DNA of 64,000 nucleotides, from the sequence record OZ346158.1; one strand, given 5' to 3'. Both the position numbers and the translations under genes were made by a program. Numbering within the stretch: the stretch's first letter is position 1; the number at the start of each line of letters is the position of its first letter. Positions 1 to 64,000 of the stretch are shown one piece after another. The DNA is from a phage. Under the pieces are notes generated by a model that worked only from the letters and a program-made list of their open reading frames with translations, searched no databases and was not told the DNA's origin.

Positions 1-1443
1 AATGGTTGGAAATGGTTAAAAGATAAGCTTGGCTATCCTGTAGACATGAGCGCTTTAGAATTCAAAGCCCCGCCTAAGCGAGCATTTACCTCCACAGGAG
101 ATGTCAGCAAGATGGGGATAAAATGGTGCGAAGAGATGGGCTGCAAAGACCCCGACAAGATGGCTGATTTCTTGAGAGGTTATATTAAGGGCACCTCCAC
201 ACCACAACCTTTACCTAAAGAGCTGATGGATCAGGCAATAAGTGATCTGCAGCAGAAGCGAATGCCTGACTGCAAGATACCTATGAAAATCAGCAATCAG
301 GACGACATTAAGCGATACCTGATCAGTGCTGGTTGGCTTCCGACAATGTGGAGAACTAAGGATGTAACTAAGGACAGCAAGAAGAAAGCTCTACCTGATG
401 CAGATGTTGATGCACGAGTATATGCATACATGGACGAGCTTTTAGAGTCAGAGTATTGTGACCTAATTATCAACTTCTGGAACAAAACTGATGCTAAGTT
501 TCAGACAACAGTGCACAAGTTCCGAAGCTTTCCTAACTCCGAAAGGATTAAAAAGGAAGTGTTCGGGAAAATACGCAGAAAAGCCAGGGCACTTATTACT
601 TCTCCGCAACTGAAAGATACGTTTGGACACCTATGTCCGAATCTTGAAAAATTGAACGGAGAGATGGCTAAAGATATCGTCTTGTGGTTATCATTGCGAA
701 ACCGCAGATCGGTCCTTGATCCAATCAAGGAGGATAAGGTTGATACTGGTCTTCTTAATCACCCACGTTTGAAGATTGACCATAAGCTTCCTGCTAAAAG
801 CTCTGGATTAACAAACACTTCCCGACAGAAACACAGTATTTGTGCAAACATGCCTAAACCATCTCCTAAAGTGGTTATGGGTAAAGAGATGCGTAGCTTG
901 TGGGGTGTTCCTCCTGGATACTTTGAGATCGGTATTGACGGGTCCAACTTAGAGCAGCTTATCGGGGCTTGGGGTGCCTTTGAGTTCGACAACGGCTTGT
1001 ACTATGATGTTGTAAGTAACGGGGACGCACACCAAAACAATGCTGAGGCATATACAAAAGTAGCAGGCAGAGAGGTGTCTCGTAACGACGGTAAACCTAT
1101 CACGTATGGGGTTATGTACGGGGCACAAAAAGATAAAGTTGCAGATATGCTGGATATCTCCCCAGAGTTGGGGCAAAGGGTGATCGATGCACTTTGGGAT
1201 GCCAACCCCGGTCTTAAGGGGCGCAAAGAGGATCTGGAGAAATTCTGGGAAGCAACGGGTAAGAAGTTTATCTACTCTTTTGATGGTCATGCCATCTGGA
1301 CCCGATCTAAACACTCTTTACTTAATGCATACCAACAGAATGGTGGTGCATCGCTGTGTGACTTGGTTGGGATACTTATGCACCACCAAATGGTGAAGCG
1401 TGGGTGGTACGATGAAGGTGTTCGTCGTATTATTTATTACCAT
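1..1443 (+). CDS. DNA polymerase family A, exon 1 (5'-partial; reading frame open to window start)
   Basis: Pol A motif A (IDGSNLEQL), motif B (R..SRNDGKPITYGVMYG); ORF ends ...RRIIYYH then K-stop exactly where motif C HDE is expected. Confidence 0.85.
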
Positions 1444-2285
1444 AAATAACATTGTGGCTTCGTGCAGTGATGCACGTCGAAAACCTCTTTAATTGACGGG
1501 AAGGCTAAGTTGACTTTTACACCTAAACATGGTAAAAGCTCAATATGCTAATCCGCAGCGAAGACTAAAGGGGTGTAGTTAAAATGGCTAGATCAGTTGA
1601 TTATCACGGATATACCGTGTTTGATGATGGAACAATACCTTTATCGAAACGTGATCATACAACAATGTTCTGTTTTGATAATGGTCGAGGTTACCTTTGC
1701 GTAACCATGTTCATCGAGGGGAAGCAGTGCACAAAAGGTGTCCACCACTTGGTTGCTGAATGCTTTGTATCAAACCCTGATCCTGAAAGGCTCACATGGG
1801 TGAACCATAAGGACGGAAACAAATACAACAATGCATACTGGAACCTTGAATGGACCACCCCTGGTGGAAATATCAAACACGCTTATGATAATGACCTCAG
1901 AGTAAGGCCAGTCGGTGAGTATAATGCCAACGCTGTACTGACCGAGGATGAGGTAACGGAGATTTGCGAACTGTTACAAAGTGGTTTACGACAATGCGAG
2001 ATTAGGGATCTTGGGTATCCTTATGAGACGGTCAGAGCCATAAAGCAAAGAAGACAGTGGAAACATATCTCTAAAAACTACACCTGGTAGTAACGTTCAG
2101 AGACTATCGAAAGCATAGCGCCAACATAAATTGGTGCGAAGAAGCGAGTAGAGTAGGCCAGCAAGTGCGGTCGAAATGGGAGGTGCCTTGGTAACAAGGT
2201 AGTGAGATAGTCCGATCCATACAGGAAACTGTATGGCTGTGCACGTAATGGTGCGGGGTAGCTTAACGACCTACCTGAACTATTG
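1444..2285 (+). mobile_element. Group I intron interrupting DNA polymerase at motif C
   Basis: Exon1 ends with U after CAT(His); downstream ORF begins DEYQLQV restoring HDE; P-like (aattgacgggaagg ~1489), Q-like (aatccgcagc ~1549), R-like (gttcagagacta ~2097), S-like (gagatagtcc ~2204) elements; terminal G at 2285. Confidence 0.75.
1584..2090 (+). CDS. HNH homing endonuclease, intron-encoded
   Basis: HNH motif VHHLVAECF...VNHKDGNKYNNAYWNLEW; located inside intron between Q and R elements. Confidence 0.85.
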   Translation: MARSVDYHGYTVFDDGTIPLSKRDHTTMFCFDNGRGYLCVTMFIEGKQCTKGVHHLVAECFVSNPDPERLTWVNHKDGNKYNNAYWNLEWTTPGGNIKHAYDNDLRVRPVGEYNANAVLTEDEVTEICELLQSGLRQCEIRDLGYPYETVRAIKQRRQWKHISKNYTW

Positions 2286-2639
2286 GATGAGTACCAACTT
2301 CAGGTCCCTGACACACCTAAGTATAAGACTGTGTACACCTTCGACACAATTGAAGAATTGGAAGCATTTAAGGCAGAGCAGGAGGCCAAACTTCATGTGT
2401 TCGACGGTCATAAGTACAAAAAGGCACGCAAGGATGAAAACGGAAACGAAGTGGTTGACAGAGACGGAAACACGGTGTACGATCCTATCCTGAACGATGA
2501 CGGAAAGCTTGAACTTATCTGGAGCCCTGTGGGTGAAATGGTGGTGCATTGCTTCTGGCAAGCTTCTAAAATGATGGGCGTTCCATTCCAGATCACAGGT
2601 GAATACTTGTGCGGTCGTAACTGGGGTGATTGTCACTAA
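2286..2639 (+). CDS. DNA polymerase family A, exon 2 (C-terminal, begins with DE of motif C)
   Basis: Translation DEYQLQV... in frame after intron 3' G; completes YYH|DE motif C. Confidence 0.8.
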   Translation, partial: DEYQLQVPDTPKYKTVYTFDTIEELEAFKAEQEAKLHVFDGHKYKKARKDENGNEVVDRDGNTVYDPILNDDGKLELIWSPVGEMVVHCFWQASKMMGVPFQITGEYLCGRNWGDCH

Positions 2640-34222: not shown

Positions 34223-35467
34223 TCAGCAACCACAACTTCCGTAGTGCTTAACTCGCTCGATAACTTCCGCTTGCTTACCTTTATTGTAAGGACGGGAGTT
34301 AGGACTGGAAAGGTATCCAGACACACGTCGAATTACACTGATCGTTCCCTCTTCATGGTTTCCACACTCTGGGCATACAAAGCCTTTAGCTGTTGCACTG
34401 AACTCACCAGAGAAACCACACTTGAGACATTTATCCACAGGTTGGTTAATACCAAAATACATAATGTGTTTATACCCGAAGTCAACAAGAGCCTCTAAAG
34501 CATCCAGGTTGTTTTTCAGGTTAGGTGTTTCTACGTATCCGATGTTGCCACCAGAGGAGATCATAGCAAAACCTTCCTCATACTCCCACTTATCAAAAGG
34601 AGAGCTATTTATCCATACTGGCTGATGGAAACTGTTGGTGAGATATTCATGCTCGTGCTTCAACACTTCCGGATATTCACGATCCAGACAGGTTGCAGCT
34701 TTATAGCATAGACTCTCAGAAGGAGTGCCGTACAAGCTAAATGCTAGTCTACTTTCCTTCTTGTATCGCTCACAAGCATCTCTCATGTGCTGAAGGATTC
34801 CAAGAGCTAAAGCCTTGTCACCCTCTCTGCCCAAAATCTGACAGGTTTCATACACACCGATATACCCAATACTGATGGAAGCGTACCCGTCATAGAAGAG
34901 TTTATCAATACTCTCTTCAGGATCCAGGCGAGCAAGAGCGCCTTCACACCACATGATGGGGTTCTGCCCTGCCTTTGTTCCTTTTAGACGATTAACCCTT
35001 ACAAGGTGAGCCTCGTATGCAAGATCCAAGTATTCGTCAAGAACTGCAAAGAAATCAACACCTTCCGTCTTGGCTTTTGCCGCAATCATTGGCAGGTTAA
35101 GGCTAACAACGCCTAAGTTAAATCTGCCAAGGTATTTCTCCTCGCCTGTTTCCAAGTCATTGTATTTGCTAAGAAAACTCCTGCAACCCATGCTAGTTAC
35201 TTTGCCATCTGTCGAGCCTGTCACTTTTCTATTTAGTGGTACAGATACGAAGTCAGGATAGATACGTTCTGCACAGCATTCCAGAGCTAATCGTTTCAAA
35301 TCATAGTTAGGATCCCCAGGGTTCATGTTGACACCCTCTTCCAGGAAGAACAGCACTTTAGGGAACACAGGTGTGATACGTTCTTCACCAAGACCCATTT
35401 TGTGGACTTTCAGGTAGTTTTTGGTAATCATTCTACCAAAGACCGAGGTATCCAGTCCTAAACTCAA
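34223..35467 (-). CDS. nrdD: anaerobic ribonucleoside-triphosphate reductase, C-terminal exon
   Basis: C-terminal CxxC...CPECG zinc site and glycyl-radical motif RRVSGYL; exact 5' exon boundary not determined. Confidence 0.8.
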   Translation of the reverse strand: MSLGLDTSVFGRMITKNYLKVHKMGLGEERITPVFPKVLFFLEEGVNMNPGDPNYDLKRLALECCAERIYPDFVSVPLNRKVTGSTDGKVTSMGCRSFLSKYNDLETGEEKYLGRFNLGVVSLNLPMIAAKAKTEGVDFFAVLDEYLDLAYEAHLVRVNRLKGTKAGQNPIMWCEGALARLDPEESIDKLFYDGYASISIGYIGVYETCQILGREGDKALALGILQHMRDACERYKKESRLAFSLYGTPSESLCYKAATCLDREYPEVLKHEHEYLTNSFHQPVWINSSPFDKWEYEEGFAMISSGGNIGYVETPNLKNNLDALEALVDFGYKHIMYFGINQPVDKCLKCGFSGEFSATAKGFVCPECGNHEEGTISVIRRVSGYLSSPNSRPYNKGKQAEVIERVKHYGSCGC

Positions 35468-36282
35468 TGTGATGAATGGAGTCTGCTGTCTCCTCCCTGT
35501 GTTTCCACAGGGCCAGACTATCTCTTACTCTACTTCAATAAGATAATAACCCTTTATTGTGAGATGCTTACCTTCGGCATTTCCTTCGATAGCCCTATGA
35601 ACGTTACCTACGTTCAAATTTAAGGCTTTTGCACAGGCATAGAGTGAAGGATATTCACCAACCAAGGTTTTACCTTTGTATGCCTGCACTTTCCTATAGC
35701 ACTTACCTGGACAAAGTCCTGTTCGGAAAGCATGTCTCTTATTATCTTCCGGCAAAACCCACTCTAGGTTAGACGGATGATCATTCAATGTATTGCCATC
35801 TTTATGATTCACTTCCCAGTTTTCAGGGTCTACTGGGACATCTGGCAAACAATACAAGGCAACAACCCTTGAGGTTTGGATTCGAATCTTTTTGCCTTTG
35901 TGGTTGAAAGAGTACATATAACGGCGTTTAACATGCTTGTTACCTTTTCCATAACCTCCCCACAATATTGGGTGTAGCATTCCACGTTTTCCGTATACGT
36001 TTCCAACCTCATCAATCACATAGTTTGATTCTTCACCATTAAGAATGATCTTTTTCATAGAGCCTCTCCATTTCGAAGTTAGTATTTCAACTAACCCCTA
36101 CACTACTTGGTTCAGAAATGTTTGTCAAGCATCTCTGCCTTTCGTTAGTCGTTACAACCGTTCCAACTCCTGTAAGAACTAGTCACGGGATTGGCATAGC
36201 TTTCGCCTTAGCGTTCCCCGTTAGCCGGATTTACCGACCCCTCTTATGAGGTTAGGAGAGTTTTACAACGGCCAGTTTGTTA
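35468..36282 (-). mobile_element. Group I intron in nrdD (approximate bounds) carrying HNH endonuclease
   Basis: nrdD split into N- and C-terminal ORFs flanking an HNH ORF; S-like element agatagtctgg on - strand near 35480. Confidence 0.65.
35525..36058 (-). CDS. HNH homing endonuclease, intron-encoded
   Basis: NWEVNHKDGNTLNDHPSNLEWV HNH core. Confidence 0.85.
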   Translation of the reverse strand: MKKIILNGEESNYVIDEVGNVYGKRGMLHPILWGGYGKGNKHVKRRYMYSFNHKGKKIRIQTSRVVALYCLPDVPVDPENWEVNHKDGNTLNDHPSNLEWVLPEDNKRHAFRTGLCPGKCYRKVQAYKGKTLVGEYPSLYACAKALNLNVGNVHRAIEGNAEGKHLTIKGYYLIEVE

Positions 36283-37143
36283 ACCGTTGACAGAAGTTAA
36301 CGTATTGATTTGATAGAGCAAAGTCTGCATGCTGTCAAATACGTCTTTATCTGTCATTTGCATTGCAACAGTCTCAGCATCTGGCAACCAATGTTCCTGG
36401 CAAAATTTAAGGTTCTTCTCATAGGTCGCTTCAGCATACTGTGCCAGATAATGATCAATATGGCTCATAGTCTGACCACCATATTGAGCACTAGCTACCG
36501 CACTAGAGATTTGGCTAAGGATTGTTGTTGCAACCCCTATTGACTTCGGCTTACTGACATGGGCGTTACCAATGTTGAATCCGTTTTCCAACATATCTGG
36601 ATAATTTACCAAACAACAGTTTGTTAACGGACTGATCAAGTAGTCAAGATCATGCACATGGATGAATCCTTTATTGTGCTCTTCGGAGACACGGTCTGGC
36701 AGGATCTGTGTTGATGCAAGGTGTTTGCTAAGAATACCTGCAAGCAGGTCGCGATGAGTGTGTACATGATTAGTAGGCTTATTTGCGTTTTCTTTTGTAA
36801 ATTCATCACAAGTTCGATCCAAGAAGCCACTAATATCTGCAAGCAGTTTTCCACCTGCCTCTCTGTTATTATCTCTTGTCTGTCTATACTGGATGTATTC
36901 TCTGGCTGCACATTTTAAACCCATATCCATAAGAGCATCTTCAACAAGGATATGGATATTTTTTACAGAGATCGTGCACTGGTCGGTTGGTAGATTGTTA
37001 GCAACAACTTCATTAACCGCGCAGGCGATCCGGTAAGCTTCTTCTTCAGTATGTCCAGACTCAAGTAAGGCGGACTCTGCCGCCTTGATCACCTTAATTC
37101 CGTTATAGAACTCTTCTCTACCGTCCCGTTTTACAACTTTCAC
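36280..37143 (-). CDS. nrdD: anaerobic ribonucleoside-triphosphate reductase, N-terminal exon (ATP cone)
   Basis: ATP-cone start MKVVKRDGREEFYNGIKVIKA; ORF terminates at intron border. Confidence 0.8.
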   Translation of the reverse strand: MKVVKRDGREEFYNGIKVIKAAESALLESGHTEEEAYRIACAVNEVVANNLPTDQCTISVKNIHILVEDALMDMGLKCAAREYIQYRQTRDNNREAGGKLLADISGFLDRTCDEFTKENANKPTNHVHTHRDLLAGILSKHLASTQILPDRVSEEHNKGFIHVHDLDYLISPLTNCCLVNYPDMLENGFNIGNAHVSKPKSIGVATTILSQISSAVASAQYGGQTMSHIDHYLAQYAEATYEKNLKFCQEHWLPDAETVAMQMTDKDVFDSMQTLLYQINTLTSVNG

Positions 37144-60742: not shown

Positions 60743-60817
60743 GCCCTGTTAGCTTAGTGGATAAAGCAGCGGCCTTCTAAGCCGTTGACACTGGTTCGAG
60801 TCCAGTACGGGGTGCCA
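60743..60817 (+). tRNA. tRNA-Arg (anticodon UCU)
   Basis: Hand-folded cloverleaf: acceptor gccctgt/acggggt, anticodon loop cuUCUaa, T-loop ttcgagt, encoded CCA. Confidence 0.85.
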
Positions 60818-60821
60818 AATT

Positions 60822-60908
60822 GGGGAGTTATCCCGTAGAGGTAGCGGTGTAGACTGTAAATCTATTGTCATTGCGACTCGGGTGGTTCGACTCCACCACT
60901 CCCCACCA
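60822..60908 (+). tRNA. tRNA-Tyr (anticodon GUA), long variable arm
   Basis: Acceptor ggggagt/actcccc, anticodon loop ctGTAaa, T-loop ttcgact, CCA. Confidence 0.85.
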
Positions 60909-61022
60909 AATTTATATTTTTAGATGCATAAATAATACAGATAATGGCATTGATATTTATCGTCGTTTATACTAGTCACTAACTGCTCGAAAATCAGTGT
61001 CATTATCAGTATAATTTATAAA

Positions 61023-61113
61023 GGAGGGTAGGGAGCAATGGTGCTCAAGCGGTCTTGAAAACCGTCCCGTTGAGGATGACTCGATGATGGTTCGATTCCA
61101 TTACTCTCCGCCA
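61023..61113 (+). tRNA. tRNA-Ser (anticodon UGA), long variable arm
   Basis: Acceptor ggagggt/actctcc, anticodon loop ctTGAaa, T-loop ttcgatt, CCA. Confidence 0.8.
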
Positions 61114-61211
61114 CATTGTTGACCTTGTAATTAAGCGAAAGCCGGAAGCAGAACCGGATTATCAAATGTTACAGTCGTCATCGCCGACTAGCAACATGGT
61201 CAACATACTGA

Positions 61212-61308
61212 GCTAGGTAAGCCCTTTGGCAAGGGCGAGGATTTTTAATCCTGAAAATAGACGAGGTAGTCGTTGAATACATAGGTGGTTCGATTCCATC
61301 ACCTAGCA
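61212..61308 (+). tRNA. atypical tRNA-like gene (possible tRNA-Lys UUU with about 30-nt variable region)
   Basis: Perfect 7-bp acceptor gctaggt/acctagc, D-arm gccc..gggc, T-loop ttcgatt; anticodon arm imperfect; 97 nt. Confidence 0.4.
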
Positions 61309-61315
61309 CCTTTTT

Positions 61316-61388
61316 GCTGATGTAGCACAATCGGTAGTGCAATTGATTTGTAATCAATAGGTTGTAGGTTCAAGTCCTGCCATCAGCA
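61316..61388 (+). tRNA. tRNA-Thr (anticodon UGU)
   Basis: Acceptor gctgatg/catcagc, anticodon stem attga/tcaat, loop ttTGTaa, T-loop ttcaagt. Confidence 0.85.
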
Positions 61389-61392
61389 CCAA

Positions 61393-61467
61393 GGCCCTGT
61401 AGCTGGAAGGTTCAAGCAAGCGACTCATAATCGCCAGACGGTGGTTCAATTCCACCCAGGGCCACCA
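61393..61467 (+). tRNA. tRNA-Met/Ile2 (anticodon CAU)
   Basis: Acceptor ggccctg/cagggcc, anticodon loop ctCATaa, T-loop ttcaatt, CCA. Confidence 0.85.
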
Positions 61468-61478
61468 AATAGTAAATA

Positions 61479-61555
61479 CTCCGCGTAGCTCAGCTTGGTA
61501 GAGCGCCTGATTTGGGATCAGGAGGTCGAGTGTTCGAATCACTCCGTGGAGACCA
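61479..61555 (+). tRNA. tRNA-Pro (anticodon UGG)
   Basis: D-arm tagctcagcttggtagagc, anticodon loop ttTGGga, T-loop ttcgaat, CCA. Confidence 0.85.
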
Positions 61556-62375: not shown

Positions 62376-62659
62376 GAGTTGCTACACTGTTTATTGTGTG
62401 CTTGTTATTATGTGGGTGTGCAACCAGCGTTGAGAGAGAATACAAGATTGACCCTCCTGATGTAGGAAGGTTGATTGTTAAACCCCCGGAAGGTGCCATG
62501 AAACCACCTGCTAAAGCTATGCCTTTGAAGAAAGGTGCGCCAGATGCAGTGAATTCTGGCATTATGAGGGATAATAATCTGTCTTGTAGCAATGATAGAG
62601 CTAAATTGATCATTTTGCAAGACTATATTAGAACACTTTTTCCAAAGGAGAGAGGTTAA
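62372..62659 (+). CDS. o-spanin (Rz1-like outer-membrane lipoprotein)
   Basis: Lipobox LLLCGCA, Pro-rich mature region; start overlaps i-spanin stop. Confidence 0.65.
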   Translation: MRVATLFIVCLLLCGCATSVEREYKIDPPDVGRLIVKPPEGAMKPPAKAMPLKKGAPDAVNSGIMRDNNLSCSNDRAKLIILQDYIRTLFPKERG

Positions 62660-63084
62660 TGTCTAAGATTTACGGACCGTGTTCTGAAAAGCAGAAGATG
62701 ATCCTAGAAAACGATGCAGATATTTTGGTAATCGGCGGTGCCGCAGGGTCTGGCAAGTCGTTCCTCTTGCAATTGATGCCACTTAAAATTATTGATGACC
62801 CCCACAGCTCTGTGGTTATGTTCCGAAGAACAACCCCACAGTTGGAAGGTGAGGGTGGATTATGGCCTAAAGCAGTAGCTATTTATAGTGATCTGCCTGA
62901 AAACATTAAGCCAAAGTTTAGAGAGAAGGATCATAAGTTCATTTTTCCACGGTTTGATCCGAACACTGGCAAGTGGGATAGAAGCAAAAAGGGAGCTGTT
63001 GTAAAATACTGCCACATGGAGTATGTACAAGATAAGCTTAACCATCAGGGGCTTGAGTACACCATGGTTTGCTTCGATGAGGGT
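62659..63084 (+). CDS. terminase large subunit, exon 1 (ATPase N-terminus)
   Basis: Walker A GGAAGSGKS, Walker B MVCFDE then G-stop at intron border. Confidence 0.8.
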
Positions 63085-64000
63085 TAATTTGTAGCTCTCG
63101 TAAAACCTCCCTAATTGCGGGGAAATCTTTATTATTGACACCACCAACCTGTCATGGTAACATGACAGAGGCTTCGAAGAGAGATCGAAGGTATGGTAAC
63201 AGTGTGTTAATTTAGATAATCCGCAGCGAAGCATCCGAGAGGATGAACGTTCAACGACTAGTCGAAAGACGTAGAATCAAGCGATTCGAAACGGGAGGGT
63301 GAATGTGTAATACTAAGAAATGTATGGATTGCCAAAGAGTTCTACCTATTGATGATTTCTTTTTATCATCTAAGAGCAAGGATGGATACTCAGGTACATG
63401 CAAGGAATGCTATATGTACTACAGGAAGGGTGGATCTCGTAAAAACAAAAATATGGTTAAGAGAGATGATGCAGCATTGTTTATTCAAGACTTGCTGAAG
63501 AAAGGTGAACTTTTTGAATGCAAATCTTGTCATGAAAGTATGCTCGCTGATAGTTTTTACACAAAACGTGACTATGGTAAAGTATATCTGGTTACGAACA
63601 GGTGTAAGATGTGTGAAAAGTTTTATCAGATTGAGAAGAAATTTCACATAACAAAAGATGAATACTATCGTCTACTCTCAGATCAAGATCATAAGTGTGC
63701 CATTTGTAGAATATCCCTTGATGAGTATAGGACGCAAGGGTATAGAGATTTCTTTTGTGTTGATCATGACCATAAAACTGGTGCTGTAAGAGGGTTGCTT
63801 TGTGATAAATGCAACAGAGCTTTAGGTTTCTTCCAAGAGGATGAGGAAACTATTCTTAGAGCGGCAGAGTATTTACACATTCATAAGATATAGTCTGGTC
63901 TGCATGGAGACATGCAGCTGCCTGAAAATGGCGGGGCAAGACTAGCGACCTTGCCCGAACATAAACGACACAATTCGAATGGGAGCAGATAGACTACCTG
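63085..64000 (+). mobile_element. Group I intron in terminase large subunit gene (3' end beyond window)
   Basis: P-like aattgcgggga (63106), Q-like aatccgcagc (63220), R-like gttcaacgactagtcg (63250); contains endonuclease ORF; shares the 15-mer taatccgcagcgaag with the polymerase intron. Confidence 0.7.
63303..63893 (+). CDS. intron-encoded endonuclease (Endo VII / HNH-like)
   Basis: Zinc fingers CMDCQ..C and CVDHDHKTGAVRGLLCDKCN core. Confidence 0.8.
   Translation: MCNTKKCMDCQRVLPIDDFFLSSKSKDGYSGTCKECYMYYRKGGSRKNKNMVKRDDAALFIQDLLKKGELFECKSCHESMLADSFYTKRDYGKVYLVTNRCKMCEKFYQIEKKFHITKDEYYRLLSDQDHKCAICRISLDEYRTQGYRDFFCVDHDHKTGAVRGLLCDKCNRALGFFQEDEETILRAAEYLHIHKI

Follow-up and report, generated by a model that had tools for sequence, protein, structure and literature searches.

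INTRODUCTION

Group IA introns interrupt nucleotide-metabolism genes of coliphage T4 (td, nrdB and nrdD (sunY)). As in the intron described here, the reading frame soon meets a stop codon, the endonuclease gene forms a loop on a peripheral helix, and the start of its translation is structured or masked. They differ from it in their host genes and in their endonucleases (GIY-YIG I-TevI and I-TevII, HNH I-TevIII).

Family-A DNA polymerase genes are interrupted in phages SPO1, SP82 and Bastille, whose introns also belong to subgroup IA2 and also encode an HNH homing (nicking) endonuclease (I-HmuI, I-HmuII and I-BasI). Among solved structures, that of I-HmuI, the SPO1 member of this group and a nicking homing enzyme, comes nearest to the protein encoded in our intron; the similarity is limited to the N-terminal 100 residues. 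Unlike the phage studied here, SPO1, SP82 and Bastille infect Gram-positive hosts, and their introns are inserted at site 674 in the fingers subdomain, not in motif C (PMC3428280).

Introns at the motif C position itself are described for the T7-like phages ΦI and W31 (Bonocora & Shub 2004), where the account in PMC3428280 places IA2, HNH-containing introns at polymerase "site 881"; in E. coli Pol I numbering this is the motif C His. We found such an intron by blastn with the 3' end of T7 gene 5. In Teseptimavirus PDP351P2 (OZ035763) a 601-nt group I intron lies exactly after the His653 codon (MAWVH/DEIQV), and we take it to be the same as the ΦI/W31 intron (AY769989/AY769990). Like the intron reported below, it carries P7.1, a GUA linker and P7.2 as well as an HNH gene (HNH_3) in the P6 region, and it interrupts an essential replication gene in a phage of enterobacteria. 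However, nucleotide similarity between the two is confined to 26 nt of universal core, the HNH proteins (131 aa in PDP351P2, 168 aa and I-HmuI-like in our phage) are unrelated by BLASTP (E = 14), P2 is present only in ours, and the host phages belong to the Autographiviridae and to the Vequintavirinae (a myophage), respectively. The two are therefore separate intron lineages that occupy one codon boundary in two phage families.

For Pectobacterium phage CB7, removal of the CB7_50 insertion in infected cells was reported on the basis of RT-PCR and cDNA sequencing (PMC7344957). CB7 is a Certrevirus of the Vequintavirinae and its polymerase intron occupies the same H/DE site as ours. The ribozymes are homologous: one structure fits both, with 74% identity in the 3' half of the core and a divergent P5-P6 region (54% identity in the 5' half). 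In the HNH proteins (127 aa in CB7) only the motif could be aligned, with 38% identity over 53 aa. The CB7 polymerase gene has a second, upstream intron, which is absent from the phage studied here (in the record of its near-identical relative WalterGehring the polymerase is a two-piece join).

Here we analyse the polymerase locus at the left end of a 64,000-nt stretch of phage DNA (OZ346158.1; "the window"). We conclude, with little room for doubt, that a mobile, self-splicing group I intron of IA2 type takes up positions 1444-2285, lodged between the His and Asp codons of the HDE motif in the family-A DNA polymerase gene of an rV5-like E. coli phage. For this phage we infer splicing, homing and the activity and target of the nuclease from sequence.

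RESULTS

The insert separates the His and Asp codons of polymerase motif C

The first 3 kb of the window share 99.3% identity with Escherichia phage WalterGehring (MZ501111; Bas51 in the BASEL collection) and 92-98% with numerous further rV5-like myophages (genus Vequintavirus). The left edge of the window falls within the DNA polymerase gene, and a mechanical list of open reading frames gives 46..1449, 1584..2090 (168 aa) and 2283..2639, all on the plus strand. Motif A (GIDGSNLE) and motif B (KPITYGVMYG) both lie in exon 1, which matches Pfam DNA_pol_A (E = 4e-7). The 3' end of exon 1 reads cgt cgt att att tat tac caT (RRIIYYH), the last T being position 1443, and is followed in frame by AAA TAA (K-stop; stop codon 1447-1449). 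Exon 2 starts at G2286, directly after a G at 2285, with gat gag tac caa ctt cag gtc (DEYQLQV).

When 1-1443 and 2286-2639 were joined, the frame was open and read ...IIYYHDEYQL; the predicted protein segment across the junction is IIYYHDEYQLQVPDTPK. The joined protein aligned with T7 DNA polymerase through the junction (E = 1.4e-13), with IIYYH/DEYQL opposite T7 MAWVHDEIQV, so that HDE corresponds to H653/D654/E655. Upstream of the junction, motif A was found opposite T7 GIDASGLE and motif B was aligned as well. Since the joined exons align with T7 His653-Asp654-Glu655, the insert is placed between the His and Asp codons of motif C.

Alleles with and without the insert were compared by megablast of positions 1100-2640 against 50,697 phage records. 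Relatives fell into three span classes: the full 1541 bp, 975 or 1027 bp, and 699 bp, the last being exactly 1541 - 842. One allele per class was aligned. In the intron-less phage EduardKellenberger TATTACCAT is followed by GATGAGTAC with nothing between them, and intron-less sister phages read TATTACCAT then GATGAG across the site. The intron-less site is TATTACCAT joined to GATGAGTACC. These alleles define the intron ends without recourse to any model, and the boundary cannot slide, as the neighbouring bases leave no ambiguity. About half of the Vequintavirus genomes in the collection are without exactly these 842 nt, and rV5 and JEP1 carry shorter inserts with no open reading frame (ORF) at the same position (276 and 328 nt, respectively). 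Both the intron-less alleles and the T7 alignment indicate that removal of the insert leaves a continuous host gene.

An earlier note on this DNA had read exon 1 as ending in ...RRIIYYH followed by K-stop, with DEYQLQV resuming 842 nt later, and on re-reading the sequence we found all of these coordinates to be right. It had also placed the insertion exactly at H/DE of motif C, where the intron-less alleles and the T7 alignment put it too, and had expected the HDE of family-A polymerases to be restored on joining the exons, as the alignment with T7 bears out.

The insert has a complete IA2-type ribozyme core

We searched the DNA with the Rfam group I model (RF00028, Intron_gpI). The whole model (1-253) was matched at 1434-2235, with E = 4.5e-8 when a 1.4-kb region was searched and 2.1e-6 when the search covered all 64 kb. 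At 38.9 bits the match falls short of the gathering score of 50, which we attribute to penalties for the 510-nt ORF in the P6 loop and for an enlarged P7.1 insert after P7. Natural ORF-less introns at the same site scored 64.7 (rV5), 69.8 (KP12), 73.7 (JEP1) and 91.2 bits (24-2-1), and the core of the JEP1 intron is 95-99% identical to that of the window.

The full secondary structure was derived by hand (Table 1). In the window copy, all pairs of the hand-derived helices are Watson-Crick or G·U. The 5' splice site follows U1443, which forms a wobble pair with G1454 of the internal guide sequence in a 6-bp P1, and the in-frame UAA is located in the P1 loop. A P10 of 4 bp is possible, as exon 2 GAUG (2286-2289) is complementary to C1450-U1453. 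We located the P element AAUUGACGGGAAGG at 1491-1504, the Q element AAUCCGCAGC at 1550-1559, the R element GUUCAGAGACUA at 2095-2106 and the S element GAGAUAGUCC at 2204-2213. The G-C pair of P7 at alignment columns 189/318 is invariant and by analogy we infer that this pair, G2102-C2212, is the guanosine-binding site.

Subgroup IA2 is defined by extra helices P7.1 and P7.2 between P7 and P3, linked by G-U-A (PMC3428280). The window intron has P7.1, GUA and P7.2 in this arrangement; its P7.1 is extended, and the GUA linker is invariant in 12/12 introns at this site.

Table 1. Features of the polymerase locus (positions in the 64,000-nt window). Percentages are alignment cells with standard pairs; "both sides" gives pairs in which both partners changed.
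Feature	Position	Strand	Details and evidence
DNA polymerase exon 1	1..1443	+	cut off by left window end; last codon is the motif C His
Group I intron (IA2-type), 842 nt	1444..2285	+	absent exactly from intron-less alleles; Rfam RF00028; covariation
P1	1440..1457	+	CCAU exon + AA intron (1440-1445) / UUGUGG guide (1452-1457)
P2 hairpin CGUGCA/UGCACG	1461..1476	+	6/6 both sides; 100%
P3 5' strand	1483..1489	+	partner 2178-2184; 3 both sides; 89%
P4-P5-P5a/P5b domain	1494..1557	+	P4 1494-1500/1552-1557 (90%); P5 1504-1505/1547-1548; P5a/b 1510-1520/1532-1543; P5 extension variable
P6 and P6a 5' strands	1557..1580	+	P6 1557/8-1560; P6a 1564-1567, 1571-1580; mini-construct folds
HNH homing endonuclease gene, 168 aa, I-HmuI-like	1584..2090	+	looped out of P6a
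P6a and P6 3' strands	2076..2097	+	P6a 2076-2085, 2088-2091; P6 2094-2097 (94%)
P7 5' strand	2100..2106	+	G2100, bulged A2101, GACUA 2102-2106; partner 2208-2213; 2 both sides; 100%
P7.1, GUA linker, P7.2	2107..2172	+	P7.1 2107-2147; GUA 2153-2155; P7.2 2156-2159/2169-2172 (3 both sides; 100%); subgroup IA2 hallmark
P3 3' strand	2178..2184	+	covariation count
P8 hairpin, GUAA loop	2185..2200	+	5/6 both sides; 98.5%
P7 3' strand, inside S element	2208..2213	+	Rfam match; covariation
P9, P9.1, P9.2	2217..2275	+	P9 2217-2224/2229-2236 (GAAA loop; 4 both sides); P9.1 2241-2244/2251-2254 (1 both sides); P9.2 2257-2261/2271-2275 (3 both sides); each 100%
Omega-G, terminal guanosine at 3' splice site	2285..2285	+	invariant 12/12
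DNA polymerase exon 2	2286..2639	+	DEYQLQV…GDCH, stop 2637-2639; aligned to T7 DNA polymerase

The fold is maintained by covariation in introns at the same site

We used tblastn with the two exon ends to find further introns at the H/DE site. Their ORFs were cut out, 12 distinct cores with short exon flanks were aligned by MAFFT, and pairs were counted for the hand-derived structure. The set comes from Vequintavirinae of at least the genera Vequintavirus, Avunavirus, Seunavirus, Mydovirus and Certrevirus. Besides those of rV5 and JEP1, intron lengths at this site were 843 nt (Mangalyan and Av-05), 317 nt (24-2-1), 771 nt (SSE121/AV124), 772 nt (A5-4 and PBES02), 919 nt (R7), 343 nt (KP12) and 687 nt (CB7). 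GE_vB_MG (frameshifts, an UNVERIFIED record) was left out of the alignment, and so from the comparison was Vibrio phage K412, which had no tblastn match to the exons of the window.

Standard pairs filled 91.9% of 854 cells, compared with 36-42% when the 3' partners were slid by 1-3 columns. Both partners had changed in 36 of the 74 pairs (slid controls, 1-12), and the covariation score of 0.370 compares with no more than 0.094 after sliding. Values as high as these did not occur in any of 500 shuffles; shuffle controls may be inflated by relatedness, but the slid controls speak against that here. P2, P7, P7.2, P9, P9.1 and P9.2 were paired in all cells. P1 gave no covariation signal because all 6 of its pairs are invariant in 12/12 sequences. 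The structure model is least secure in the distal P5 helices, which vary in length and were described by eye; in the alignment made by MAFFT, 59-75% of their cells were paired. P7.1 was identified by eye in every sequence and was not counted because MAFFT put it out of register. Taken across these genera, the counts are strong evidence that the ribozyme fold is under purifying selection, the ORF-less copies included.

The earlier note had called the insert a group I intron with P, Q, R and S-like elements. All four elements were found in it, and the assignment is upheld by the covariance-model match and the strong covariation, by a core with no helix missing, and by the splice-site features, a U·G pair at the 5' site and a G as the last base of the intron.

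An HNH gene is looped out of P6a

The HNH gene that had likewise been noticed in the insert was recovered by profile search. The ORF matched PHROG 59 ("HNH endonuclease") with E = 9e-38, and the best solved structure was I-HmuI (1U3E, E = 4.5e-6). Aligned to 1U3E, the protein keeps H75, N87 and N96 and has N in place of D74. The Pfam HNH_3 score was 17.7 bits, under the cutoff of 24.8, compared with 39.6 bits (above the cutoff) for the orthologue in SSE121. Because of the sub-cutoff score and the Asp74 to Asn change, nuclease activity of the 168-aa protein is not guaranteed. Orthologues are found at the same P6a position in Av-05 (72% identity), SSE121 (55%), PBES02 (55%) and A5-4 (51%). A reading of the insert as a free-standing endonuclease gene was considered and rejected.

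Base pairing brings the start and the end of the ORF together. G1571-U1580 pairs with A2076-U2085 and A1564-A1567 with U2088-U2091, the latter strand overlapping the stop codon of the ORF (UAG, 2088-2090). A Shine-Dalgarno-like GGGGUG (1570-1575) lies upstream of the AUG of the HNH gene and is therefore buried in the P6a pairing. Mini-constructs of this phage, Av-05 and SSE121 all paired the ORF ends, with modest z-scores of -2.1 to -2.9, and in Av-05 the helix is kept by a compensatory change. The folding models suggest that P6a masks the ribosome-binding site and so probably down-regulates the nuclease. Such down-regulation of the endonuclease is known from other phage introns.

Presence and absence of the intron do not follow exon relatedness

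From an evenly spaced sample we estimated that about 31 records have the intron with an ORF, about 28 an ORF-less intron and about 57 no intron. Over 340 nt upstream of the site the intron-less EduardKellenberger allele (Bas59) is 98.2% identical to the window, and over 350 nt downstream 100%, compared with 95-97% for the flanks of the intron-bearing Mangalyan, rV5 and JEP1. SNPs in the flanking sequence lie at -22 and -67. Presence and absence of the intron are thus incongruent with the relatedness of the exons, and the near-identical intron-less flanks point to recent gain or precise loss. This polymorphism is what would be expected of the homing-type element that had been proposed, and it indicates a homing element, although the pattern alone does not imply an active nuclease.

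The patchiness could also have arisen by vertical descent and repeated precise loss, in a ribozyme that still splices but has lost homing because its HNH gene is inactive or repurposed. The sub-cutoff HNH_3 score and the Asp74 to Asn change relative to I-HmuI fit such a history, as does the repeated loss of the ORF (rV5, 276 nt; JEP1, 328 nt; KP12, 343 nt; 24-2-1, 317 nt). We nevertheless regard it as unlikely. The 168-aa ORF is intact, and orthologues in other genera occupy the equivalent place in P6a with 51-72% identity, which speaks for selection acting at the protein level; His75, Asn87 and Asn96 are conserved; the near-identical flanks of the intron-less allele fit recent gain and recent loss equally.

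The cargo of the introns at this site is not uniform. The CB7 intron carries its 127-aa HNH gene (Pfam HNH_3), which is like that of the window in the HNH motif only. The intron of Salmonella phage R7 carries a LAGLIDADG gene (Pfam E = 1.4e-16), and carries it in P7.1, not in P6a. One ribozyme lineage at the H/DE site of the Vequintavirinae may have been colonised independently by unrelated endonuclease genes at different peripheral loops and have lost them repeatedly; we give this scenario an even chance. If true, the motif C codons would be a convergent target of several nuclease families, and the site would offer a tractable natural system for watching mobile introns assemble from a ribozyme and an invading nuclease gene. 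Intron-plus, ORF-less and intron-less isolates that grow on E. coli K-12 exist in the BASEL collection.

No similarity to the two other introns of the window was seen when the polymerase intron was compared by blastn with the remaining sequence. For this reason a 52-nt match between the JEP1 intron and Vequintavirus terminase genes is irrelevant to the window copy. The genomes of WalterGehring and the window are not collinear out at the two other intron matches.

Proposed splicing and homing pathway

Taken together, the structure suggests the following course of events. Ribosomes translating exon 1 would halt at the UAA two codons into the intron, and the intron RNA would adopt the P1-P10 ribozyme fold. 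An external guanosine held in P7 would attack after U1443, positioned by the U·G pair of P1. The freed 3'-OH of exon 1 would then attack after omega-G2285, with P10 aligning exon 2, and ligation (caU/gau) would yield an mRNA for full-length polymerase with an intact HDE. The HNH protein would most probably nick or cut intron-less polymerase alleles of co-infecting relatives, with repair copying the intron in, and its synthesis would probably be restrained by the P6a helix between the ORF ends, which would mask its ribosome-binding site.

We weighed this against the possibility that the insert stays in the RNA and that two polypeptides, exon 1 ending in …YYHK and exon 2 initiated from TTG at 2283, assemble post-translationally. 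Such an arrangement would separate His from Asp-Glu within a single catalytic motif. Exon 1 does end at a stop codon of its own and a mechanical ORF with a TTG start spans 2283-2639, but on reading the sequence we found neither a Shine-Dalgarno-like sequence nor an ATG ahead of the start of exon 2, and the region before 2283 is buried in P9.2. There are precedents for unspliced insertions and for assembly from pieces: in CB7, one HNH-containing insertion, in the nicotinamide phosphoribosyl transferase gene, is reported not to splice, and NrdA of Aeromonas phage Aeh1, split by mobE, is cited in the same paper (PMC7344957). However, the CB7 homologue at the same site as ours does splice (PMC7344957). 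The full ribozyme core is kept by compensatory changes across genera, and the ORF-less forms would have no other obvious reason to persist. We consider two separate polypeptides very improbable, and the split-gene reading was rejected because exon 2 lacks both a ribosome-binding site and an ATG.

Inteins occur in polymerases of related phages, and exon 1 of Mangalyan and JEP1 contains an extra in-frame stretch of ~970 bp. For the insert studied here, an intein or other in-frame insertion acting at the protein level is refuted by the UAA two codons into the insert and by its length of 842 nt, which is not a multiple of 3; its RNA, moreover, matches the group I model.

DISCUSSION

The self-splicing intron described here adds a case to the homing introns that target essential phage genes at their most conserved catalytic codons. 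The element is of a textbook kind and already known, being annotated in records of near-identical phages, and knowledge of how such elements work is unchanged by it. The modestly interesting part is the presence of several unrelated nuclease cargoes on one scaffold together with the convergent use of H/DE. The comparative set comprises three allele states, at least three endonuclease cargoes on one ribozyme scaffold and an independent T7-like intron at the same site, and it could serve as an experimental system for homing and for the entry of endonuclease genes into introns.

The main value of the analysis lies in annotation hygiene for rV5-like polymerase genes. The correct gene model is the spliced polymerase of about 925 aa. 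The WalterGehring record (MZ501111) joins the polymerase CDS from two pieces that flank a "putative homing endonuclease"; once joined, they have a length compatible with the 2778 nt of the EduardKellenberger gene, which has no intron. Intron boundaries in the BASEL phages were annotated by comparative genomics (PMC8594841). The rV5 genome paper reports a 775-aa polymerase and discusses introns only in the terminase (PMC3606486); these 775 aa correspond to exon 1 only. Many rV5-like records, that of rV5 included, list a truncated 775-aa polymerase and, separately, exon 2 as a "hypothetical protein".

Group I intron signals in the terminase and nrdD-like genes

Besides the intron at polymerase motif C, two further group I intron signals were found in the window (see table). 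One splits the gene for the terminase large subunit, encodes an endonuclease VII-like protein and is the counterpart of the terminase intron that the rV5 paper mentions (PMC3606486). The other lies between the separated parts of an nrdD-like gene (minus strand, 36280-37143 and 34223-35467), as does an HNH ORF.

In the ORF-less polymerase intron of the Vequintavirus JEP1, a 52-nt stretch covering Q-P6-P6a-R (nt 107-157; L005 750-800) matches part of the terminase gene in many Vequintaviruses (e.g. MZ501083 1241-1292) at 94% identity. The match hints that sequence may have been exchanged between the polymerase and terminase introns. When the window's own intron copies were compared with each other, this similarity was undetectable.

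Features in the window and in related phage loci
Feature	Sequence	Coordinates	Strand	Evidence or remark
Terminase exon 1 ORF	window	62659-63087	+	contains Walker A motif
Second group I intron	window	63075-63917	+	Rfam 48.7 bits, E = 2.5e-9
196-aa ORF in terminase intron	window	63303-63893	+	Endonuclease VII family, Pfam E = 2e-21
Third group I intron signal	window	35495-35782	-	Rfam 27.8 bits, E = 0.0047; interval 35495-36279
177-aa HNH ORF	window	35525-36058		HNH_3 and weak I-HmuI NUMOD-like match
tRNA gene cluster, at least 6 genes	window	60743-61552	+	Rfam tRNA matches
Motif C-site intron	vB_Sen_SG_WM_RUS_R7 (L012)	1502-2420		
Upstream polymerase intron	24-2-1 (L007)	15-218		Rfam 47.5 bits
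Upstream polymerase intron	Av-05 (L013)	446-1117		Rfam 39.1 bits
Upstream polymerase intron	KP12 (L006)	1584-2299		
Upstream polymerase intron	CB7 (L015)	CB7_52 region		
Putative homing endonuclease gene, free-standing	WalterGehring (L001)	1289-2023		just upstream of window's left end

Insertions in the polymerase genes of related phages

In the lineage of the window's phage the motif C intron is the sole polymerase intron. A second one, also of group I, lies farther upstream in the polymerase genes of Avunavirus 24-2-1, Av-05, Klebsiella phage KP12 and CB7. Salmonella phage R7 has an intron at the motif C site, but with a LAGLIDADG gene in P7.1 rather than HNH in P6a as in the window. The R7 record is labelled Demerecviridae, which looks doubtful because its polymerase exons are 77% identical to Vequintavirinae sequence at the protein level.

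Polymerase exon 1 of Mangalyan (L002 1520-4918; CDS 3399 nt) is ~970 bp longer than that of WalterGehring with the frame kept, and JEP1 and VB-EcoM-WM show the same lengthening, which suggests that some Vequintaviruses carry an intein or other in-frame insertion in this protein. The free-standing putative homing endonuclease gene of WalterGehring, located between the primase/helicase and polymerase genes, adds one more mobile-element insertion to the replication module.

Database records and tRNA genes

In rV5 (DQ832317, ORF 228/225) and numerous other public records, the polymerase is given as the truncated exon-1 protein and exon 2 is annotated separately, as 'hypothetical protein' or a 'DNA polymerase' fragment; the rV5 polymerase was quoted as 775 aa (PMC3606486). 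Such split gene models need to be joined. Approximately 16-20 unannotated 'Campylobacter phage' records (MG0656xx; host Campylobacter jejuni) are 92-97% identical to the E. coli Vequintavirus region of the window and are probably mislabelled or contaminant assemblies. Two additional weak Rfam matches in the tRNA cluster, at 60822-60904 and 61023-61109, are tRNA-Sec-like but probably represent ordinary long-arm tRNAs.
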